Source: a virus
Taxonomy: Duplodnaviria; Heunggongvirae; Uroviricota; Caudoviricetes
Direction: 5' to 3' (one strand)
IMG/VR virus record: IMGVR_UViG_2737471819_000029
Span: 1-21,894 of that record
Length of the DNA: 21,894 nt
Shown here: piece after piece, positions 2,610 to 20,546 of the stretch
Layout: every line of letters starts with the position of its first letter
Position numbering within the stretch: the first letter of the stretch is position 1
The notes under the pieces: generated by a model
What the model was told of the DNA's origin: nothing
Seen by the model: the letters and a program-made list of their open reading frames with translations, nothing else
The model's database searches: none
Translations under genes and position numbers: made by a program

Positions 2610-3050
2610 ATGGCGCGCCCAACAAAGTATCAAGAGGCGTACGCCGAACAGGCACGCAAACTGTGCTTGCTGGGCTACACCGATGCAGAGCTTGCTGATT
2701 TCTTCGAAGTCAGTGAGTCAACTATTAACAAGTGGAAGCTTGATTATCCTGAGTTTTCGGAGTCCATAAAAAAGGGTAAGGCCGTCGCTGATGCAGAAGT
2801 TAGTGATCGTCTTTATCAACGCGCTATGGGCTTCGTGGCTCCAGACATCGATATTCGTGTTATTGAAAACAGAATTGTCGAAACTCCGCTTGAGAAGTAT
2901 TACCCGCCTGATACAACCGCCGCCATCTTCTGGCTTAAGAACCGACAGAAGGATAAATGGCGCGATAAGGTTGATCACGAGCTAACAGGCAAAGACGGCG
3001 GCGCAATCCAGATTGAAACATCACCGATGAGCACTCTATTCGGAAAATGA
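2610..3050 (+). CDS. Terminase small subunit (146 aa); C-terminal tail shared with Sf6-type TerS, N-terminal domain different
   Basis: C-terminus ...GKDGGAIQIETSPMSTLFGK matches the C-terminal tail I recall for Sf6 gp1; ATGA overlap with the large terminase start; N-terminal ~100 aa contain an HTH-like segment (TDAELADFFEVSESTINKWK). Confidence 0.8.
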   Translation: MARPTKYQEAYAEQARKLCLLGYTDAELADFFEVSESTINKWKLDYPEFSESIKKGKAVADAEVSDRLYQRAMGFVAPDIDIRVIENRIVETPLEKYYPPDTTAAIFWLKNRQKDKWRDKVDHELTGKDGGAIQIETSPMSTLFGK

Positions 3051-4459
3051 CCTCGATTAATCCTATCTTTGAACCGTTCATTGAGGCGCATCGCTATAAA
3101 GTCGCCAAAGGCGGTCGAGGTAGCGGTAAGTCATGGGCAATCGCGAGGTTGCTTGTTGAGGCGGCACGTCGGCAGCCTGTGCGTATTCTTTGCGCTCGTG
3201 AACTGCAAAACAGTATCAGCGATTCGGTAATCCGACTGCTTGAAGACACCATAGAGCGGGAAGGGTATTCGGCTGAGTTTGAAATTCAGCGTTCAATGAT
3301 TCGTCATCTCGGAACGAATGCTGAATTCATGTTCTACGGCATCAAAAACAACCCGACGAAGATTAAATCGCTCGAAGGCATTGATATCTGCTGGGTGGAA
3401 GAAGCGGAAGCGGTAACGAAGGAATCATGGGATATCCTGATACCAACCATCCGTAAGCCGTTCTCTGAAATATGGGTGAGCTTTAACCCGAAGAACATAC
3501 TCGACGATACCTATCAGCGATTCGTTGTAAATCCTCCCGATGATATTTGCCTGCTGACGGTGAACTACACCGACAACCCGCACTTTCCTGAAGTTCTCCG
3601 TCTGGAGATGGAAGAGTGCAAACGCAGAAATCCGACACTGTATCGTCACATCTGGCTTGGTGAGCCGGTAAGCGCAAGTGATATGGCAATCATCAAACGA
3701 GAATGGCTTGAAGCTGCAACCGATGCGCACAAGAAACTCGGATGGAAAGCGAAAGGCGCTGTTGTCTCTGCGCATGACCCATCAGATACAGGGCCAGATG
3801 CTAAAGGTTACGCATCGCGTCACGGTTCGGTAGTTAAGCGCATTGCCGAAGGTCTGCTGATGGACATCAACGAGGGTGCTGACTGGGCTACTTCGCTGGC
3901 GATTGAAGACGGCGCTGACCATTACCTGTGGGATGGTGATGGTGTTGGTGCCGGGCTACGCAGACAGACAACGGAAGCGTTCTCCGGTAAGAAAATCACC
4001 GCCACGATGTTCAAGGGCAGTGAATCGCCATTCGATGAAGATGCGCCGTATCAGGCCGGAGCATGGGCTGATGAAGTCGTACAGGGCGACAACGTTCGCA
4101 CTATTGGTGATGTGTTCCGCAATAAGCGAGCGCAATTCTATTACGCGCTGGCTGACAGGCTGTATCTGACATATCGGGCGGTTGTTTACGGTGAGTATGC
4201 AGACCCCGACGACATGCTGAGTTTCGACAAAGAAGCGATAGGCGAGAAGATGCTGGAGAAGCTGTTTGCAGAACTGACGCAGATTCAGCGCAAATTCAAT
4301 AACAACGGGAAGCTGGAGCTAATGACTAAGGTCGAAATGAAGCAGAAGCTCGGTATTCCATCTCCTAACCTGGCTGATGCGCTGATGATGTGTATGCATT
4401 GCCTGGCATTGGTCCGCGAAGAAACTGAAATATACGTTCCCTCATCCTCCGGTTGGTAA
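3047..4459 (+). CDS. Terminase large subunit (470 aa), P22/Sf6 family
   Basis: Walker A-like KGGRGSGKS near the N-terminus, 470 aa as in Sf6 gp2, position between terS and portal. Confidence 0.9.
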   Translation: MTSINPIFEPFIEAHRYKVAKGGRGSGKSWAIARLLVEAARRQPVRILCARELQNSISDSVIRLLEDTIEREGYSAEFEIQRSMIRHLGTNAEFMFYGIKNNPTKIKSLEGIDICWVEEAEAVTKESWDILIPTIRKPFSEIWVSFNPKNILDDTYQRFVVNPPDDICLLTVNYTDNPHFPEVLRLEMEECKRRNPTLYRHIWLGEPVSASDMAIIKREWLEAATDAHKKLGWKAKGAVVSAHDPSDTGPDAKGYASRHGSVVKRIAEGLLMDINEGADWATSLAIEDGADHYLWDGDGVGAGLRRQTTEAFSGKKITATMFKGSESPFDEDAPYQAGAWADEVVQGDNVRTIGDVFRNKRAQFYYALADRLYLTYRAVVYGEYADPDDMLSFDKEAIGEKMLEKLFAELTQIQRKFNNNGKLELMTKVEMKQKLGIPSPNLADALMMCMHCLALVREETEIYVPSSSGW

Positions 4460-4461
4460 AC

Positions 4462-6588
4462 ATGGCAGAGACATTAGAGAAAAAACATGAGCGGATCATG
4501 CTCAGGTTTGACCGCGCCTATTCTCCACAGAAGGAAGTGCGCGAAAAGTGCATTGAAGCTACGAGGTTTGCTCGTGTCCCCGGAGGTCAATGGGAAGGAG
4601 CAACGGCGGCTGGAACTAAGCTTGATGAGCAGTTAGAGAAGTATCCTAAGTTTGAAATCAATAAGGTAGCAACTGAACTTAACCGCATCATTGCAGAATA
4701 CCGCAATAACAGAATCACCGTTAAGTTTCGTCCTGGTGACAGAGAGGCAAGCGAAGAGTTAGCCAATAAATTAAATGGTCTGTTCCGTGCTGACTACGAA
4801 GAAACTGATGGCGGTGAGGCTTGCGATAATGCATTTGACGACGCTGCTACTGGTGGTTTCGGTTGCTTCCGTTTGACGTCGATGCTGGTCAATGAATACG
4901 ACCCCATGGACGATCGTCAGCGTATTGCTATTGAACCAATATACGACCCGTCGCGCTCCGTGTGGTTTGACCCTGACGCTAAGAAGTACGACAAATCTGA
5001 CGCGTTGTGGGCGTTCTGCATGTATTCGTTGTCACCTGAAAAATATGAGGCTGAATACGGAAAGAAACCTCCTGCTTCTCTGGACGTAACGTCTATGACC
5101 AGTTGGGAATATGACTGGTTTGATGAAGATGTTATTTACATAGCGAAGTATTACGAAGTTCGTAAAGAGTCTGTTGATGTTATCAGTTATCGACATCAAA
5201 TCACTGGAGAGATTGCAACATACGACAGTGATCAGGTCGAAGATATTGAAGATGAACTGGCAATAGCTGGATTTCAGGAAGTGGCAAGGCGCTCAGTGAA
5301 GCGCCGTCGGGTGTATGTATCCGTAGTGGATGGTGATGGTTTCCTTGAGAAACCTCGACGTATTCCTGGTGAGCATATCCCCCTCATCCCGGTTTATGGA
5401 AAACGCTGGTTCATTGATGACATTGAGCGTGTCGAAGGGCACATTGCAAAAGCAATGGATCCACAGCGTTTGTACAACCTTCAGGTTTCAATGCTGGCTG
5501 ATACTGCAGCGCAAGACCCCGGTCAGATCCCTATAGTTGGCATGGAGCAAATTCGTGGACTTGAGAAGCACTGGGAGGCTCGCAACAAGAAACGACCAGC
5601 GTTCTTGCCGTTGCGCGAAGTGAGAGATAAATCTGGCAACATTATCGCTGGAGCTACCCCGGCAGGATATACACAGCCTGCGGTTATGAATCAGGCATTG
5701 GCTGCATTACTACAGCAAACCAGTGCAGATATTCAGGAGGTTACAGGCGGCAGTCAGGCCATGCAGCAGATGCCAAGTAATATTGCTCAGGAAACGGTTA
5801 ACAACTTGATGAACAGAGCAGATATGGCTTCGTTTATCTATCTGGACAATATGGCGAAAAGTCTTAAACGCGCTGGTGAAGTATGGCTGTCAATGGCGCG
5901 TGAAGTGTACGGTTCAGAACGTGAAGTGCGCATCGTTAACGAAGATGGAAGTGATGATATCGCTGTCCTGAGCGCACAGGTTGTTGACAGGCAAACAGGG
6001 GCTGTTGTTGCGTTAAATGACCTTTCTGTCGGTCGATACGATGTGACGGTTGATGTTGGACCAAGCTACACAGCACGACGTGATGCAACGGTTTCTGTAC
6101 TGACAAATGTCCTTAGCTCTATGCTTCCAACAGACCCAATGCGCCAGGCAATTCAGGGTATTATTCTGGACAATATCGATGGCGAAGGCCTTGATGACTT
6201 CAAAGAGTACAACCGAAACCAACTGCTGATATCTGGTATTGCAAAACCACGCAATGAGAAAGAGCAGCAGATTGTTCAACAGGCGCAAATGGCAGCACAA
6301 AGCCAGCCAAATCCTGAAATGGTTCTCGCTCAGGCGCAAATGGTAGCAGCGCAGGCAGAAGCGCAAAAAGCAACTAACGAAACTGCTCAAACTCAAATCA
6401 AAGCATTTACTGCCCAGCAGGATGCGATGGAGAGTCAGGCAAACACTGTCTATAAACTGGCTCAAGCCAGAAACATCGATGACAAAGCAGTGATGGAGGC
6501 AATACGCCTTCTGAAAGATGTCGCCGAGTCACAACAACAGCAATTCCAGTCACCACCACAGTCACCGGCAGACTTAATGCCGAGTTAA
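4462..6588 (+). CDS. Portal protein (708 aa from the ATG at 4462; the ORF track begins at a TTG at 4453)
   Basis: P22 gp1 / Sf6 gp3-like blocks (KRRRVY, AGEHIP, DVGPS) and a long Gln/Ala-rich helical C-terminus typical of the P22-type portal barrel; the ATG at 4462 gives MAETLEKK... and a length of 708 aa. Confidence 0.9.
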   Translation: MAETLEKKHERIMLRFDRAYSPQKEVREKCIEATRFARVPGGQWEGATAAGTKLDEQLEKYPKFEINKVATELNRIIAEYRNNRITVKFRPGDREASEELANKLNGLFRADYEETDGGEACDNAFDDAATGGFGCFRLTSMLVNEYDPMDDRQRIAIEPIYDPSRSVWFDPDAKKYDKSDALWAFCMYSLSPEKYEAEYGKKPPASLDVTSMTSWEYDWFDEDVIYIAKYYEVRKESVDVISYRHQITGEIATYDSDQVEDIEDELAIAGFQEVARRSVKRRRVYVSVVDGDGFLEKPRRIPGEHIPLIPVYGKRWFIDDIERVEGHIAKAMDPQRLYNLQVSMLADTAAQDPGQIPIVGMEQIRGLEKHWEARNKKRPAFLPLREVRDKSGNIIAGATPAGYTQPAVMNQALAALLQQTSADIQEVTGGSQAMQQMPSNIAQETVNNLMNRADMASFIYLDNMAKSLKRAGEVWLSMAREVYGSEREVRIVNEDGSDDIAVLSAQVVDRQTGAVVALNDLSVGRYDVTVDVGPSYTARRDATVSVLTNVLSSMLPTDPMRQAIQGIILDNIDGEGLDDFKEYNRNQLLISGIAKPRNEKEQQIVQQAQMAAQSQPNPEMVLAQAQMVAAQAEAQKATNETAQTQIKAFTAQQDAMESQANTVYKLAQARNIDDKAVMEAIRLLKDVAESQQQQFQSPPQSPADLMPS

Positions 6589-12745: not shown

Positions 12746-14161
12746 ATGGCTACGTGGCAACAGGGTATTAATTCTGGTGGTTTTCTGGCTGGCATCGGTA
12801 CGCAAAATGAGAATGCGCCAAAGGCAAGCGACATTAACGCAACGCTTGGTCTGATCCGCGAAAACAATGAACTGGCTCGATCAGGTGCAAATAACGTTGG
12901 TCTGACCGCGTTACGTGGTCTGGCTGGAGTTGCTGATATTTACAATCAGGAACAGCAACAGAAAGCGATTAGTGCGTTCAATAAGGTTCACGCTGATGCA
13001 TGGGCTTCTGGTGATCCATCGGGACTATTTAAGTTTGCCCAGGAAAATCCAGCGTTTGTTGCACAGGCACAACAGGCGTTTTCCGGTCTTAATGATCAGC
13101 AACGCAACGATATGGGCGATTTAGCCATGAGGGCTAACGTCGCTCTTTCTCAGGGACCGGAAGCCTACAGTAAATTCATTACTGACAACAAGGACAGGTT
13201 AAATCGCGTGGGGGCGAATGCTGACTGGATGATTCAGACAGGTATCCAGAATCCAGAGCAGCTATCACACATGCTGACTACTATGTCTCTCGGTGCGCTT
13301 GGACCAGAAAAGGCGTTTGCTGTTCAGGACAAGATGGCTGGTCGTGAAATTGACCGAGGCAAACTTGCAGAGACAATCCGCAGCAATCAGGCTGGAGAAG
13401 CACTTCAGGCGAGAGGGCAAAACCTTTCCTATCAGTCAGCAATGACTGGACACAATATCGCAGCACAACGCTTGGCTCTGGATCAGCAAGAGTTCGGGTT
13501 TAAGATGCAGCAAGCACAGGAAAAGGCTCAGCAGTTGATTAGCGAAGCACCTAAGCTGTCAGTAAACATGGAAAAAGGCATCGAGACGGCTGTAAACAAT
13601 GCTACAGCATCATCAAACTCAGCCAATTCTATGAGTGCGCTTGCTCAACAGTTCAGAGCAGAAAAACCAACGACAGGTTTGTTCGGTAACGCACAGAACA
13701 TGTTCGCAAAACTTACCGGAAGCGATACAACATTGCGTGATTTGCGCATCCGCCAAAATGCCCTTGTTAACAGTCAGGTTCTTAAATTCCTACCTCCCGG
13801 CCCCGCAACGGATAAAGACGTTGAGATCGTTCGGCAGGGTGCACCAACTGACATGGATAACCCTGAGACGGTCGCAAGATGGCTTGATGCGATGGCAAAC
13901 CTTGAGCGACGAAACGCGCAGTTTAATGAGTTTAAAGCCGAGTGGATGAGCGCGAATGGCAATCCAGGACAATCGCGTAATGGCGGTCAGATATTGGGGT
14001 TGGATGTTAAAAAAGGTGAATCATTGGGGAGTGCCGTTAAGCGGTATATGTCAATGAATACTGACGCAGCGCCAGCACAAGATTCGACACCTTCAGGAGA
14101 ACCACGGAATCAGGTTGGATCATATACCTCAAAATCAGGCATTCAATTTACGGTGGAATGA
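12746..14161 (+). CDS. Ejection protein, P22 gp20-like (471 aa)
   Basis: Same length as P22 gp20 and correct order; start codon preceded by AAGGGG SD. Confidence 0.75.
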
Positions 14162-15999
14162 TGAAAGTAACTGCAAACGGTAAGACATTTACCTTTCCTG
14201 ATGGTACGAGCACCGAAGATATTGGCACCGCCATTGATGAGTATTTTGCTGGTCAGGCTGTTCAGCAACAAACAGTTAATCAGGCCAATAATGCACCAAC
14301 ACGGGAAGAACCATCATTAATGCAACAAGCTGGCGATTGGCTCACTGGTGGTCAAAGTGCAGGGCAAATCGCAGAACAGGCTGGTCGTGGTCTGGTAAAC
14401 ATACCATTTGACGTATTGCAGGGTGGCGCAAGTCTGATTAATGCAATCAGTCAGGGGCTTGGTGGGCCAAAAGTATTGGATGATGTCTATCGTCCAGTCG
14501 ATCGACCGACAGACACTTATGCGCAAGCTGGAGAAACAATTGGCGGGTATTTAGTTCCAGGAGTTGGAACGGCAGGAAGCATGGCTATTGGATCACTGGC
14601 AGAGGCCGCAAATCAGAAAGGCGATTTCGCACAAAATGCAGCTAAAAATGCCGGAGTTAACCTTGCCGCTCAGGGTGTTCTTTCCGCAGCAGCAAAGGGA
14701 ATAGGGCGTGGAATAACGGCTATAAAAGGTGATATTGCGCCAGAAGTGGCGAAGAAAATTGCCACATCAGAATCGATGGGCGTGACACCAATGACATCTG
14801 ATGTTATCCCGCCGAAAAATGCTTTCACTCGTGGCCTTACTCAGGATGCCGAGGGTGCTTTGCTCGGGACAGGCTCAAAGCGAGCGGAGCAATATGCAAC
14901 GCGTAGTAAACTGGTAAGCAATTATTTTGACCGTTTTGGTGAGTATAACCCTGATGATGTGGTGAAATCTCTGACCACCACGTTAAGGGGGCGGAAGGAT
15001 GCCGCTGGCGCTGTTATCAATGACGTCACCAATAAAATGGGTAATGCCGCAGTTGATACCACAAATACCATGAATGCTCTGAATACAGCGATCGCAAGAC
15101 AGGAACGGCTTGGGACGTCTGCCAATCAAAGCCTGCTTACATCCTTGCGTAACCTACGTGAAGAATTAGCAAACCCTGCAACTGATTTGGATGTTACGTT
15201 TGATCTCTTGCGTCAGCACAGAACAGCATTTAGATCTAATGTTCAGGGAGATGCTATGGTCTTCCCCAACCAGGCAAAAGCAGCTACCAATATGGTAGAG
15301 AATGCAATGTCAAAAGACCTTCGTAACGCAGTTGCTAAAAACCTCGGTGCATCAGACGCAGCAAAATACCTTAAAGCAAATTCCGATTATGCAAACGTTT
15401 ATAATAAGGTGCTTAATAAAAACATTGCTAACAAGCTCAACAAGGCAAGCAGTGAAGCCAGTCCTGAACTTATAAATACCGTTGTATTAAGCAGAAAACC
15501 ATCTGACGTGAAACGAATCTGGAGCGCACTGGATGATAAAGGGAAAGATGCTATGCGTGCAGCTTACGTCAGCAAAATAGCGGAAAAGGCCGGTGACTCT
15601 CCAGCCAAGTTCATCACTGAAGTTAATAAGCTGAAATCTCAGTCAGGCGGTGAAATTTACAACACTATTTTTTCTGGGAAGCACATGAAAGAGCTTGATT
15701 CTCTTCATGAAGTTCTACAGCAAACAGCAAGGTCAGACACCGCAAATGTAGTAACTCAGACGGGGCAATCGCAAGCCAACAGGATAAGGACGATTGGCGC
15801 AACTGCGACTCTTGGCATATCAATGGGTCTTGAGGCTGGTTTCGGTGCAATGATGCGCTTGTATGAGTCTAAAGCAGCAAGAAACATGCTTCTCCGCCTT
15901 GCAAACGTCAAGCCTGGAACTCCGGCATATGAGCGAGCGTTAAATCAGGCTGCTAACGCCGTTCGCCCTCTCCTAACTAACGAAGCTACCAGGCAGTAG
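14158..15999 (+). CDS. Ejection protein, P22 gp16-like (613 aa)
   Basis: ATGA overlap with the preceding gene; length close to P22 gp16 (609 aa); last gene of the ejection-protein block. Confidence 0.75.
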
Positions 16000-16018
16000 A
16001 AATGAACGCCAAGGAAGG

Positions 16019-16348
16019 CTATTTAATTCTCTTTTCAATGGCTGCAATTATTGCTTTTCCTGATGTTTCAGGAGATTTTGTAGCCATATAAGACGAAAAA
16101 ATCATGTCGGTCATTCTTTCATAACTTACTATTTCCCACTTAGCCAATGCATGGGACAGTTTGTAGTTGTCATCAGTTAGTGCCCTTATGGAATTTTTTA
16201 AGTGTTTATTCTCTTCTGTTAATCGCGCAATTTTTGTATCAATTTCATGTGAGCGATCTAATTCCTTAACCTGTTTCTTGAGGGCAGCTAACCCTGCATA
16301 TAGTACGCAACAGGATATCCCAAGAGCGAGTACGACTATTTCTAACAC
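16019..16348 (-). CDS. Hypothetical membrane-anchored coiled-coil protein (~110 aa; GTG start after a strong SD). The 181-aa track ORF is this gene plus a spurious 5' extension.
   Basis: On the minus strand AAGGAGG (complement of 16354-16360) lies 5 nt upstream of an in-frame GTG (16346-16348). Product begins VLEIVVLALGISCCVLYAGLAAL (one TM helix) followed by heptad-like charged sequence (KKQVKELDRSHEIDTKIARLTEENKHLKNSIRALTDDNYKL...). The upstream part of the long ORF looks like antisense of the neighbouring gene. Confidence 0.5.
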   Translation of the reverse strand: MLEIVVLALGISCCVLYAGLAALKKQVKELDRSHEIDTKIARLTEENKHLKNSIRALTDDNYKLSHALAKWEIVSYERMTDMIFSSYMATKSPETSGKAIIAAIEKRIK

Positions 16349-16378
16349 ACCAACCTCCTTAGTTTTTCGCAGGATACC

Positions 16379-16744
16379 ATGAAAAAAGTTAACATTGGAA
16401 ACGTACCAAAGATGCTCGTTCCGCTCTTTGAGAGCGGTACAATTGTGTTTTGTAGAGACTTTCCAGAATGGCAACGCCTGCATCAAAAACTTGGCGTTGA
16501 CGTGCATGACTCGGACGCCAACGGAGCGTCTCATACAATGAGTAGCGAGAATGGTGTTTTGCATGTGATAGGCGTGTTCAATGGCAAACTATCTACTATT
16601 GCCCATGAGTGCGCTCACATGGCATTCGATATCTGCTCAAGGGTAGGTGTTGATGTTGAACCAGGAAGAGCCAACGAGACTTACTGCTACTTAATGAGCA
16701 GGCTTGTTGAGTTCTGCGAGCGACATATCAAAAAGCCGGAGTGA
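16379..16744 (+). CDS. Hypothetical small HExxH-motif protein (121 aa), candidate zinc metallopeptidase-like protein
   Basis: Protein-like composition; contains IAHECAHMAFD (H-E-x-x-H); divergent from the membrane protein gene with only ~30 bp between start codons; weak SD (GGA). Confidence 0.5.
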   Translation: MKKVNIGNVPKMLVPLFESGTIVFCRDFPEWQRLHQKLGVDVHDSDANGASHTMSSENGVLHVIGVFNGKLSTIAHECAHMAFDICSRVGVDVEPGRANETYCYLMSRLVEFCERHIKKPE

Positions 16745-16751
16745 CCCGGCT
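16735..16751 (-). terminator. Putative intrinsic terminator for the small minus-strand gene (hairpin overlaps the 3' end of the HExxH gene)
   Basis: AGCCGG / CCGGCT 6-bp stem with 6-nt loop; on the minus strand it is followed by TTTTTGATA. Lies immediately downstream of the minus-strand stop at 16758. Confidence 0.45.
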
Positions 16752-16757
16752 TGATTA

Positions 16758-16937
16758 TTACTTTTTGCTGTCTGGAGTTCGCTTATCTAATACCCAGCCA
16801 TGACCTGGCTTTGTTGTTGGCGGAAGCCTTTCGTTGTCCTTGACGGTGGCAAAATTGTCTTTCTTACCGCCGCGCGGGCCAACTTCTTGGTATATTCCGC
16901 CGTTTTTTCCTGTGTTTTCACCTGGTTTTTTCGCCAT
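16758..16937 (-). CDS. Hypothetical small Lys/Gly-rich hydrophilic protein (59 aa from the second ATG)
   Basis: GAGG 7 nt upstream of the second in-frame ATG (MAKKPGENTGKNGGIYQEVGPRGGKK...); terminator hairpin immediately downstream; candidate -35 TTGACT (complement of 16997-17002) upstream. Confidence 0.45.
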   Translation of the reverse strand: MAKKPGENTGKNGGIYQEVGPRGGKKDNFATVKDNERLPPTTKPGHGWVLDKRTPDSKK

Positions 16938-17097
16938 GATATACCTCAACATACACCCGTTATTGGGCGATTAAATATTGATCTCATTTTATAAGTAGTC
17001 AATATGGCCCAGGTAAATGAAAAAATTAACCAATCGTCATCTGGGGTATCCGTAAAAACCCTTCAGTACATAACTACTGACAGATAACCAACGCAAA

Positions 17098-17122
17098 GAC
17101 CCAGCTTCGGCTGGGTTTTTTA
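17098..17122 (+). terminator. Strong rho-independent terminator inside a 330-bp non-coding gap (orphan on the + strand)
   Basis: ACCCAGC / GCTGGGT perfect 7-bp GC-rich stem with TTCG tetraloop followed by TTTTTT (17117-17122). Confidence 0.6.
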
Positions 17123-17267
17123 TGCCCAAAATTCACCGTAGCAACTAAGCGGTGATGGCCTTGATGGATAGCACTACGAAATTTTCGTAGTTCAAAAACC
17201 AAACAAATACCAACCGTCGCCATGCTGCGGCGATTCCTTGTATCTGGAGCAAATTAAATGACAGACA

Positions 17268-17762
17268 TTATCTAAAACAAGCAAACTCGCCATGATATTT
17301 TTCCCTGAATGCAATAGACATTAATTCTGCCAGCTCAATATCATCGGTATACCCAAGGAAAATAGACTTACCTTTTAGTTTGAACATAACTTTATATGTG
17401 TTTTTCCCTTTAAGAAGATGAACTCCTTTTATACCTGTATTGGATGATGAAACGCTGTTGGTTTTATTCTGACCTCTGGTTACTTCTCTTAGGTTTGAAA
17501 TTCTATTGTCATTTTTAACCCCGTTAATATGGTCAATTAACCCTTTAGGCCAGCATCCTTTCATATAAAACCAAGCAAGTCGGTGGCAAAGATACGATTT
17601 TCCATTAATCCGTATTGATAAGTAGTCGGCCTGTGAGTTCGTCTTAAATCCAGCAACCTTTCCGATACTGGAGCTACCAGAAGCTATCTTCCAAGTGAAG
17701 ACGCCTGTTTCTGGGTTGTAGTTGAGTGAAGAGGTTAATTCTTTATGAGTAATCATATTCAT
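17268..17762 (-). CDS. HNH endonuclease with C-terminal AP2-like DNA-binding domain (homing-endonuclease-like), 164 aa
   Basis: Motif LCHRLAWFYMKG...IDHINGVKNDNRISNLREVTRGQN (HNH_3-type H-N-N core) followed by GIKGVHLLKGKNTYKVMFKLKGKSIFLGYTDDIELAELMSIAFREKYHGEFA (AP2-like); AT-rich codon usage; start may be the second ATG at 17756. Confidence 0.8.
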   Translation of the reverse strand: MNMITHKELTSSLNYNPETGVFTWKIASGSSSIGKVAGFKTNSQADYLSIRINGKSYLCHRLAWFYMKGCWPKGLIDHINGVKNDNRISNLREVTRGQNKTNSVSSSNTGIKGVHLLKGKNTYKVMFKLKGKSIFLGYTDDIELAELMSIAFREKYHGEFACFR

Positions 17763-17782
17763 TCCTTAAATAGAGATTCACT

Positions 17783-19450
17783 ATGTCAAATATTGTGCCA
17801 AATGTTATAATTTCAATGCCAAGTCAACTATTTACGTTAGCCAGAAAATTCCAGGCCGCAAGCAATGGCAAGATATTCATTGGTAAGATAGATTCCGATC
17901 CTACGCTCCCACAGAATCAAGTGCAGGTTTATGTGGAAAATGAAGACGGCTCTCACGTTCCTGTTTCGCAACCAATCATCATTAACGCTGCTGGTTACCC
18001 TGTATATAATGGACAGATTGCCAAATTCGTTACCGTGCAAGGCCATTCTATGGCTGTTTATGATGCGTACGGTGCGCAGCAGTTTTATTTTCCGAATGTA
18101 CTGAAGTACGACCCGGATCAGCTTGAGCAGCGTCTTGCATCATCAATAGGTTCTTCCATGGTTGGCATTACCGATGGAAGGACAGTGCATGATTTTATAT
18201 CTGTTGATGACTATCAGAGAATTGGTGATATCCGTGGTTACGGGGCGACAAATGAAAACGTAAACCCTGTCAACATTGCCGTTGCCACAGGTGAGGCCAA
18301 TGGTCTACTGAAGGTGCCTAATGGAGTATGGAGCGGTAATTTTGAGTTAAAAAATAAAACTAGCATAACTGGTGAATCCATAACATCAACAGTTGTTAAC
18401 GTTCCTATAAACACGATCGGAATAAAGCCTGAGGGCTCTGACGTTAGAGGGATTACTATATCAAACATGAATCTCCAAGTTAACGGATCTGTTGCTGGCG
18501 GTCCTCCTGTTGGTAGCGGGGTCGGAATAGACATGTCTTTTTGCGGAAAGGCAGTTAACTGTGAGTTTAACAACCTTTATCTCGATTTCTTTGATATTGG
18601 TTACAACGCTGGATATGCTGGTTTTTCAAATATTTATAACAATATGAGGTGCAATAACAACCGAATCGGGATTAACCTATCCAGTAACGGAACAATTATT
18701 CAAAACGTATTCAATGGGTGTTATGTTGCAAACTGGACGGCTTATGCCGTGAAAGTTTCTGGCGCTAGCAACCAGATATTCAACGCGCTTAACATGGGAC
18801 ATAACGGGTCCGCCAATGCTTATTTCCTGCAGATAGATACGAACTCAAGAGGAATCATATTTAATCAACCTAACTTCGAAATGGACGTTGCAAACGGGAA
18901 AATTACAGCAGGAAGCCAGGCTATCGTGGTCGCCTCTAGTTCTGAGGTTACATTTAACTCCCCGACATTCAACAGGGTTAACGCTGCAGGGGCAAATGCC
19001 TACCTGTTCCGGGTTAGGGGTAACGCTGTAGTACGTATAAACGACCCTCAAATCTACAACGACGATGGCACAATAGGTCACCTAATTATCAGTGATGAAG
19101 CTGTTGTTTATCTCAATGATCCAAATCGAATATTCACAGTAATTACTATCCAAGGTAATGGGAGGCTAATACGTGTTGACGAGAAGATATCAAACTCCCC
19201 TAACTATACAAACATTCTTACTTTAAAATCTGGAGACATAATTAACTTTGGATTCTATGCAAGATATGCAATGGCGGTTCCAGATTTTCACTCCAATACT
19301 ATGCCATCACCATTCAAGTACGCAGTGAGCTTTGACACTTACCATAGCAGTGGAACTGCCATTGCTCGAGTGTATGATACAACCACAGGAAATGGAGTAT
19401 CAAACATCAATGTTACATGTTTCGTACAGGCGTGGAGAGAGGATAGATAA
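17783..19450 (+). CDS. Tailspike protein (555 aa): P22-type head-binding N-terminal domain fused to a divergent beta-helix-like receptor-binding domain
   Basis: N-terminal ~115 aa (…[49 protein letters not shown]…[17 protein letters not shown]…NVLKYDPDQ) match the P22 gp9 head-binding domain from memory; the remainder is Asn/Gly/Ser/Val/Ile-rich with repetitive beta-strand-like segments and unlike the P22 enzymatic domain I recall. Confidence 0.85.
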
Positions 19451-19477: not shown

Positions 19478-20546
19478 TTATACTGTAACTAAATTGTCTT
19501 CATTTCTATTGGTTTTTCTTTTTAATTTAAGAAAATGTATTTCAAAAAGATAGTATGATGCAATTGATACTATATATGCGATAGCAAACCCACATGCTAT
19601 TATCACAGCATTATTGTTTACCCCAAACAAGGAGGACATTTTGTTTGCAATTGAAAAACACAGCAAATGCCACATATACAAACCATAACTTATCTTTCCT
19701 GTAAATGTTAATGGCTTTAATGATAATGCTTTTGTTATTATTTGTTTTTTCCCTAGCACACTCCACTTGTAAATGAAAAAAATTGCAGATGAAAAAATCA
19801 TCCCAAACGCTGTAAACATATACCAGCATTTCCCAGCCCAATCTACAGGGTTCCAAAAAGCATTAAGACCAACAGAATTTATTCCATTAAGAACCAGCCC
19901 AACACCTGCTATAAAAGTTAAAAATCCTGATTCATATGCGTACTTCTCATCTTTTATCTTGGAAAACAGAGCGCCAAGAACTAACATGTCAATGCAACTG
20001 ATAAGAGTTACATTTACAATGTATGGGTTTCCATCAGTGATTTGAAATATAAAATATCTTGATATACTTGATGTTATTATTAGTATAATAAAAATCAGAT
20101 TCATATTCTTTTTGTTTATGAAAAATATGAATAGAGGCCAAAGCCAGTAAAATTGTTCTTCCACTGCAAGAGACCAAGTGTGCCCCAAAATTCCAGGTGT
20201 TGTAACATTTATTCCTATATAATAGTTATTGTAGATAAGTTATAAACCACAAATAACCATCCGTTGGTTTCCCAGTTGCAATTAGAAGAATAAAGTTAAC
20301 AAGTAGGTAAGCATAAAATAACGGGAATATTCTAAGAGATCTATTTATAAGAAATCGTTTAATATAGTTACTAAAACCAGAGTCTTTATCCTCGATAAGG
20401 ATTGAGGTAATTAAGAAACCAGATAAGCAAAAGAACAGCGGAACTCCAGACCAACCAAGAGAAAATCCTGAAACTTTGGCATGAAAAAGCATTACAATGA
20501 GCACCGCAATACCTCTCACACCATCTAAAGATTGTATATGTTTCAT
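19478..20546 (-). pseudogene. O-antigen acyltransferase (Acyl_transf_3 / Oac-like) interrupted by a single-base frameshift; two ORFs of 106 aa (20226-20546) and 236 aa (19478-20188, really open up to 20239)
   Basis: N-terminal ORF begins MKHIQSLDGVRGIAVLIVMLFHA...GVPLFFCLSGFLITS (typical family-3 acyltransferase start); second ORF contains WSLAVEEQFYWLWP (family signature). On the minus strand the frames read ...WFITYLQ-TAA and TAA-LIYNNYYIGINVTTPGILGHTWSLAVEEQFY; removing one base near + coordinate 20228 joins them into one ~350-aa ORF. Confidence 0.65.

Follow-up and report, generated by a model that had tools for sequence, protein, structure and literature searches.

Does the gene island at positions 16,000 to 17,782 of the IMG/VR virus record IMGVR_UViG_2737471819_000029 encode an undescribed exclusion or defence system, as the first-pass annotation of this DNA had proposed? 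The stretch analysed here (in the following called the window) comprises positions 1 to 21,894 of that record. It covers the end of the late operon of a P22-like (Lederbergvirus) prophage and is collinear over its whole length with HK620, Sf6 and CUS-3. The island lies between the homologues of gene 16 and of the tailspike gene 9, identified by PHROG 770 and the Pfam Head_binding domain (Table 1). In P22-like phages this interval has been named the "ant moron" by Villafane et al. 2008 and is hypervariable, with ten types across sixteen genomes (PMC2629481). The suggestion that the position holds variable cargo was therefore sound, and we found 12 different protein families in one of its slots among 80 related loci. 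The island itself is a new combination of pieces inside this already described moron, and our result mainly corrects the record in this respect. We consider it highly probable that the island is this prophage's version of the P22-like ant moron, composed of four modules with separate histories and expression logic rather than forming one system.

Composition and origin of the island

The stretch from 16345 to 17031 is 98.3% identical at the nucleotide level to P22's own interval, which in the P22-pbi record runs from the start codon of sieA through the promoter PsieA and a terminator annotated "t mnt" to orf59a. The part with hkcC and orf59a is 96.5% identical to HK620 and 98% to P22, and the gene order matches the HK620 order hkcB-hkcC-hkcD-tMNT-tANT-gene 9. 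Two of the four genes that had been regarded as unrecognised or atypical are thus native to both P22 and HK620. One encodes the HExxH protein, which is HkcC and is 99–100% identical to the HK620 hkcC product and to a P22 open reading frame (ORF); the other encodes the Lys/Gly-rich protein, which is Orf59a. P22 carries hkcC as an intact ORF of 121 amino acids (aa) that is absent from the annotation of its record, while HK620 annotates hkcC followed by hkcD (similar to P22 orf59a). The P22 moron genes besides immI are sieA, hkcC and 59a, with hkcC and 59a given as of unknown function (PMC2629481), and our literature searches on hkcC and orf59a found no functional studies. All four ORFs of the island have conserved homologues (PHROG E-values of 1e-31 to 1e-69) and are therefore more than chance reading frames.

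Compared with HK620 (AF335538), the position, order and orientation of the three small genes are all equal, hkcC and hkcD/orf59a are 96–100% identical, and a deletion of mnt-arc-ant with retention of the ant terminator is common to both. The window differs in its slot gene, which encodes another, non-homologous 109-aa transmembrane (TM)/coiled-coil protein, in retaining a P22-type spacer of 70 nucleotides (nt; 17143–17212), in a degraded tMNT hairpin and in the HNH cassette that interrupts the start of gene 9. The sieA-hkcC-orf59a-immI region of P22 is likewise flanked by genes 16 and 9; its PsieA, hkcC, terminator and orf59a share 98% identity with those of the window, where the slot gene sits on the sieA start codon. 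In contrast to P22, the window lacks the coding sequences of sieA, mnt, arc, sar and ant, has a different slot protein, and carries the HNH cassette in addition.

Positions 17060–17268 align with the 3′ end of P22 ant, the ant terminator and the gene 9 leader. HK620 annotates mnt and ant remnants and labels the tANT hairpin "tANT, associated with remnant of P22 ant gene". What had appeared to be an orphan terminator is therefore the ant terminator that stayed in place when mnt-arc-ant was deleted as in HK620. By tblastn, Mnt, Arc and Ant had no match in the window, where 3′-end remnants and tANT are all that was found. The first-pass view that the interval holds none of P22's genes thus applies to the coding sequences of sieA, mnt, arc and ant, but not to the P22-derived stretch described above or to the remaining 3′ ends of mnt and ant. 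An HK620-type deletion has taken out mnt, arc and ant, of which the mnt 3′ end and the ant terminator remain, and this prophage therefore has no immI antirepressor circuit. A functional circuit of mnt, arc, sar and ant, typical but not universal of ant morons, was not found in the window; HK620, Sf6 and others likewise lack immI (PMC2629481).

The 70 nt at 17143–17212 were also considered as a foreign insertion, which we rejected because they align with the P22 ant-to-gene-9 spacer. The HK620 tMNT hairpin (CCCACC-GTCA-GGTGGG-T6) is degraded at 17030–17055 of the window (CCAATC-GTCA-TCTGGG-GTATCC). An Rfam scan of 15500–18200 gave istR over the tANT hairpin as its sole match, at 21 bits versus a gathering score of 45 bits, which we took as chance. 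A search for the direct or inverted flanking repeats expected of a transposon-like island found none.

Could all four proteins (membrane, HExxH, small basic and HNH) jointly form one undescribed system, for example with a membrane sensor, a protease and a nuclease effector? Their genes are adjacent and compactly arranged, in mixed orientation, where P22 keeps sieA and immI. The pairing of a protease with a nuclease is, moreover, a common theme in defence systems. Against such a system stands the independent assortment of its parts. From IMG/VR we took 80 loci anchored on hkcC and determined the occupant of the sieA slot in each; by their scored features, these loci and the window fell into 17 different combinations, and that of the window was found in none of the 80. 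None of 5426 complete E. coli genomes covered at least 80% of the island; the slot gene occurred in 17 and the HNH cassette in 7 of them. P22, HK620 and most relatives carry hkcC and orf59a whichever gene occupies the sieA slot, and siphophage prophages have the two without the other parts. The HNH cassette, found in just two of the 80 loci, there accompanies other slot genes and ant, and it co-occurs with other moron types; its boundaries inside gene 9 are typical of a homing element. All parts together were present in no genome searched. PADLOC-DB 2.0 gave no significant match, with weak ones to LmuB (E = 0.0013, coiled coil), a generic homing-endonuclease model (E = 1e-6) and ZorE (E = 0.027), all of them sub-threshold. 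A scan of the four proteins against NCBIfam found nothing above noise. With modules that assort independently, a nuclease cassette that looks like a rare selfish insertion and a terminator that marks a deletion scar, a single joint system appears very improbable.

Table 1 Features of the island and its flanks in the window (., both strands)
Feature	Position	Strand	Evidence or remark
Gene 20	12746–14161		
Gene 16 homologue, ejection/DNA-transfer protein; left island boundary	14158–15999	+	PHROG 770, E = 9e-278
Island	16000–17782		
sieA-slot cassette gene, 109-aa membrane protein: N-terminal hydrophobic helix, long coiled-coil helix, invariant C-terminal segment of ~45 aa	16019–16348	−	PHROG 8100, E = 1.9e-69
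PsieA-containing upstream fragment, overlapping the hkcC 5′ end	16349–16433	−	83 of 85 nt as in P22; promoter annotated in the P22-pbi record
hkcC, putative small metallopeptidase of 121 aa, zincin-like (SprT-like); same orientation as the late operon	16379–16744	+	
Bidirectional terminator between hkcC and orf59a	16733–16752	.	Hairpin scores on both strands
orf59a/hkcD, 59-aa Lys/Gly-rich protein, probably YjzC family	16758–16937	−	PHROG 3202, E = 1.3e-31; annotated in P22 and HK620
Promoter-like site TTGACT-17-AATATT (17002 to 16974) and 5′-leader hairpin (16954–16969) of orf59a	16954–17002	−	Promoter scan
mnt-arc-ant deletion scar: mnt 3′ end (17037–17066), ant 3′ end, tANT	17037–17142	+	BLASTN/alignment to P22, HK620, ST160 and E. 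coli prophages
tANT terminator, hairpin and T-run	17099–17122		
P22-type ant-to-gene-9 spacer and gene 9 leader	17143–17268	+	Ancestral gene 9 start ATGACAGACAT at 17258–17268, now truncated
HNH_3 homing-type endonuclease gene, 164 aa	17268–17762	−	Pfam HNH_3, 55.5 bits (cut-off 24.8 bits), E = 4e-15; PHROG 99, E = 6e-61
Recoded first ~150 nt of the tailspike gene	17783–17932	+	Part of the HNH cassette (17266–17932 overall)
Tailspike gene (gene 9 homologue), P22 head-binding domain; right island boundary	17783–19450	+	Pfam Head_binding, E = 1.6e-64
Frameshifted acyltransferase gene, then integrase gene	downstream of tailspike		

The gene in the sieA slot

All five features listed in the first-pass annotation exist about where it had placed them, but the mechanically predicted ORF of 181 aa for the membrane protein was over-extended. 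PHROG 8100 covers residues 73–181 of this ORF with its full 109-position profile, the E. coli annotation is also 109 aa long, and the gene starts with a GTG after AAGGAGG. We rejected the longer ORF as the true gene, its upstream 72 codons being the antisense of hkcC and PsieA; the same antisense stretch is part of the over-extended sieA ORF of P22. P22 sieA, HK620 hkcB and the 109-aa gene of the window use one common GTG behind a common AAGGAGGTTGGTGTG, and the homology among the three ends within 1–2 nt of this start. Upstream of it, 83 of 85 bases are identical to the PsieA fragment of P22. On the other side, the 3′ end of gene 16 and about 25 nt downstream are 78% identical to P22 and form the conserved left flank of the cassette.

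The sieA position is thus a cassette site with its exchange boundary exactly at the start codon, and nearly all of its occupants are envelope proteins. In the 80 loci, 12 unrelated protein families occupy it, 11 of which have an N-terminal TM segment, a signal peptide or a lipobox. They comprise a 161-aa lipobox lipoprotein (the commonest), SieA type A, a 129-aa secreted protein, HkcB, a 74/75-aa multi-TM protein, the window's type (five loci) and six rarer families. The 161-aa lipoprotein (MKKSLLIIPLLLAGC...; in L012–L017, L021, L027–L029, L039, L041, L043, L044 and others) uses its own ribosome binding site (RBS) and ATG, not the shared GTG junction, and resembles lipoprotein-type exclusion factors of other phages.

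For P22, sieA alone with 85 bp of upstream DNA is enough for exclusion (Leavitt et al. 2024, PMC10883804). SieA proteins fall into three types, were found in 22 of 66 P22-like phages, and have three predicted TM segments and the motif FxRYPxEAxxFNK (PMC10883804). The slot protein shares with SieA types A, B and C the locus, the strand and, as judged from the start codon and the upstream bases, the promoter context; both are small inner-membrane-type proteins encoded beside the genes for the SieA-targeted ejection proteins. It differs in its long coiled coil, its distinct invariant C-terminal domain and its single predicted TM helix, versus three in SieA. A BLASTP comparison with SieA gave no meaningful alignment (E = 0.36), and HkcB did not align at all at E ≤ 100, being alike in architecture only (109 aa, TM segment and coiled coil). 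Read directly, the 109-aa sequence does not contain FxRYPxEAxxFNK, and instead of three or more TM segments it has one hydrophobic segment at residues ~2–23. The AlphaFold2 (AF2) model, with a predicted local distance difference test (pLDDT) score of 84.7, consists of a single helix of residues 2–90 and a second helix of residues 97–108.

Evolutionary comparison separates the protein into two parts. Among homologues with overall identities as low as 50%, the last ~45 residues stay invariant, whereas the TM and coiled-coil part varies. The overall ratio of nonsynonymous to synonymous substitution rates (dN/dS) of 0.64 versus the ST160 allele is consistent with this combination. Divergent homologues adjoin gene 16 in P22-like prophages of Klebsiella and other hosts, and in one locus (L114) the slot homologue is the sole gene between genes 16 and 9.

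What does the slot protein do? Our best guess is superinfection exclusion or another envelope-level function in lysogenic conversion. The slot protein would be made constitutively in the lysogen, would enter the inner membrane via its N-terminal helix and would act via the invariant C-terminal 45 residues. Exclusion is a reasonable hypothesis because the gene has sieA's own expression context and encodes an envelope protein, like 11 of the 12 slot families; as far as the sequence can tell, it is a quite possible role, though not one to be taken as probable. Several points weigh against it. The protein is unlike SieA in sequence, motif and topology, and its membrane orientation is ambiguous because positive charges come after the TM segment, which would place the conserved domain in the cytoplasm.

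It is likewise quite possible that the slot protein is not an exclusion factor but has another envelope function, such as in division, membrane stress or lysis timing, or is a fast-evolving passenger of little effect. Its bitopic TM and coiled-coil architecture is like that of DivIC/FtsB and ZapB, it has no similarity to SieA, the overall dN/dS of its gene is 0.64, and P22-like phages commonly do without sieA. The Pfam matches to DivIC and ZapB are, however, weak and sub-threshold (E = 0.01–0.03); they are compositional, driven by the coiled coil, and we rejected them as evidence of homology. Also against a mere passenger or an unrelated function, the promoter, RBS and start codon are those of sieA, the gene stays beside the ejection-protein gene across genera, even as the sole moron gene, and the invariance of the C-terminal 45 residues argues for a specific conserved interaction.

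More tentatively, we suggest that the slot protein could be an exclusion protein analogous to SieA but unrelated to it in sequence and fold, one that blocks the conduit which the ejection proteins of incoming P22-like phages form. More broadly, the sieA slot would be a natural library of alternative exclusion factors, with an effector/antidote pair of hkcC and orf59a as a less likely second novelty. To our knowledge, SieA is the sole studied example of exclusion for short-tailed phages, and the slot occupants are concrete, cheap-to-test candidates for further exclusion proteins of such phages.

HkcC and Orf59a

HkcC carries an invariant HExxH-x19-E signature of the zincin type, in the window with the motif AHECAHM. 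In an alignment of 76 diverse relatives, H76, E77, H80 and E100 are the only invariant residues; the HExxH motif is thus followed by a downstream residue that may serve as third metal ligand. The spacing is that of thermolysin-type gluzincins. A profile search of 1.8 billion representative proteins placed HkcC in a family of 552 clusters, nearly all of 100–140 aa. What is "unknown" or an unannotated ORF in P22 itself therefore belongs to a large phage family with this signature, which is an incremental finding.

In the AF2 model of HkcC (pLDDT 83.5), a sheet of four strands, interrupted by one helix, precedes two further helices. As in SprT-like and minimal zincins, HExxH lies on a helix after a small β-sheet, and a conserved Glu follows 20 residues past the second His, on the next helix. 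HkcC differs from them in its length of just 121 aa, in staying under every Pfam threshold, and in the cysteines C25, C78, C86 and C103, which are conserved and specific to the close HkcC subfamily. Its BFVD fold neighbours are mostly uncharacterised phage proteins, a few of them named SprT-like or metalloprotease, and 12 of the 76 relatives weakly match Pfam SprT-like (best E = 1e-4). The window HkcC itself matches no Pfam family and does not reach the gathering threshold of SprT-like (PF10263). Among solved structures, sequence-profile searches of the PDB with 19 and 76 sequences gave myroilysin as best match (E = 0.04), aligned around HExxH only, and the fold search gave nothing significant (SPRTN 6mdx_A, E = 0.46). 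A scan of genome contigs with HkcC returned 118 pattern matches, none of which was confirmed. The zincin assignment draws on the motif and on weak profile matches, and the lack of a Pfam family and of a significant PDB fold match counts against it. We therefore regard HkcC as a putative minimal HExxH-x19-E zincin-like protein and a predicted metallopeptidase.

A remote member of the HkcC family (profile E = 2e-22) lies at 3001–3345 of loci L107 and L108, where it overlaps its neighbours inside a phage operon. It is located downstream of an endolysin gene, between genes for 170 and 488 aa, and has no orf59a beside it. The wider HkcC family is therefore not confined to morons.

Orf59a probably belongs to the YjzC family, as judged from its relatives: used as a query, it reaches homologues carrying PF14168 and UniRef proteins named YjzC family, while its own score against Pfam YjzC (PF14168) is 19.1 bits versus a cut-off of 25 bits (E = 0.0017). 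An alternative upstream ATG at 16952 would extend it to 64 aa. The promoter-like site and the leader hairpin upstream of orf59a are kept in podophage and siphophage contexts. The hairpin (CGCCC-AATAA-CGGGTG) has equivalents in L087, L088, L093 and L095, with an apparent compensatory change in Morganella (GCTC...GAGC), and it may be a regulatory or stabilising RNA element.

The two genes are oriented toward each other, with a terminator between them that is annotated "t mnt" in P22 and "tORF59A, bidirectional" in HK620. Their expression timing is deduced solely from orientation, promoter-like sequences and the P22 annotation. Since hkcC always runs in the direction of the late or structural genes and lacks a conserved promoter, it is probably expressed late by read-through; orf59a, in opposite orientation and with its own conserved promoter-like site, would be expressed from the prophage. 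Siphophage-type prophages of Rosenbergiella and Klebsiella, two metagenomic phages and Morganella P22-like prophages encode HkcC homologues of 43–63% identity, and each of these genes is followed by a convergent gene for a 59-aa Orf59a homologue. HkcC thus usually, but not obligately, travels with Orf59a across differing phage types, again an incremental finding.

Could hkcC and orf59a then be a functional two-gene unit? Prophage-made Orf59a would act on the host or on an incoming phage, and the late HkcC protease would remove or counteract Orf59a in lytic growth. The convergent pair with its terminator persists over HkcC identities of 43% to 100% and turns up in prophages of both the podophage (P22-like) and the siphophage type, with Escherichia, Salmonella, Morganella, Klebsiella and Rosenbergiella as hosts; the opposed orientations and the promoter-like site of orf59a are constant, and both genes are under purifying selection. 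Yet in 11 of the 80 loci, all P22-like, hkcC is kept and orf59a is swapped for an unrelated 74-aa membrane protein. Remote HkcC relatives exist without orf59a, orf59a relatives also occur alone, and the linkage may therefore be historical and not functional. Furthermore, no experimental hint of an HkcC-Orf59a interaction was found, and neither gene is required for P22 exclusion. We hold such a unit to be unlikely.

The protein that replaces Orf59a in these 11 loci (L009, L011, L048, L052, L054, L056, L065, L070, L071, L077 and L086; about 4380–4604) has two TM segments. Its junction lies at the last two codons and the stop, which makes the site downstream of hkcC a second slot for cassettes.

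Could the small ORFs instead be decaying relics of the immI region, functionless today? Clear relics do lie in the same interval, namely the 3′ ends of mnt and ant and the degraded tMNT hairpin, and none of the three genes has a known function. However, the ORFs are intact in hundreds of genomes, and frequent frameshifts or stop codons were not seen in the population samples, save for single truncated cluster members. The dN/dS of hkcC is 0.05, and orf59a shows a dN of 0.12–0.19 at saturated synonymous sites. The catalytic-type residues of HkcC are invariant in the 76 relatives, as is the C-terminal domain of the slot protein in its own family. Decay is accordingly a very remote explanation, and we retain the reading of the island as an ant moron of separate modules.

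The HNH cassette at the tailspike start

The HNH cassette interrupts the ancestral tailspike gene after 11 nt; directly behind ATGACAGACAT comes the HNH gene, 3′ end first. Where the tailspike gene restarts at 17783, its first 150 nt agree with HK620 at only 15–19 positions per block of 30 nt; thereafter 25–30 of 30 nt match until about nt 330, the end of the head-binding domain. In loci without the HNH gene, the leader and the ATGACAGAC start are conserved, nearly all of them sharing one of a few closely related variants, and the target at the gene 9 start reads …CAAATTAAATGACAGACATTACAGCCAATGTTGTAGTG…. The recoded 5′ allele of gene 9 is common to three HNH carriers of the window type only. 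At this very site, phage Kapi1 (MT813197) and one IMG/VR locus carry a different HNH gene (42% identical) together with a recoded allele of their own.

In both the 80 loci and the E. coli genomes, the cassette always lies at the gene 9 start beside the gene for the head-binding domain, and in other genomes it is found downstream of an intact ant. The protein has an HNH catalytic domain, and its gene is present in some loci and missing from others at one fixed position within otherwise conserved sequence, the flank being diverged in the carriers. This is the signature of a free-standing homing-type endonuclease, a predicted selfish mobile element and not cargo for the benefit of the host. The recoding of the gene 9 5′ end would shield the carrier allele from cleavage. 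Like other free-standing HNH homing endonucleases of phages, including that of Kapi1, the window's gene belongs to HNH_3, is inserted at the identical nucleotide after the ancestral gene 9 start and is accompanied by its own divergent gene 9 5′ end; in contrast, the window and Kapi1 proteins are just 42% identical, with cleavage and homing predicted for both. The start of the tailspike gene is a recurrent HNH landing site, which could promote the swap of tailspike (host-range) modules.

A third class of tailspike 5′ alleles (MPNITPNV... or MPDITPNV...) is present in L007, L008, L019, L061, L075 and L085. These loci have a different upstream sequence, with ~280 extra nt between mnt and gene 9, which suggests yet another insertion at the tailspike-start hotspot.

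Beside the integrase gene lies an Acyl_transf_3 (O-antigen acetylase-like) gene (19478–20546, minus strand) that is split into ORFs of 106 and 236 aa by a frameshift near 20190–20225 and is either a pseudogene or the product of a sequencing error. It is part of a stretch of 29–35% GC and had no near match in the phage collection. The tailspike protein is short, with 555 aa, and beyond the head-binding domain its best PHROG match is phrog_8280, annotated as a colanic-acid-degrading tailspike.

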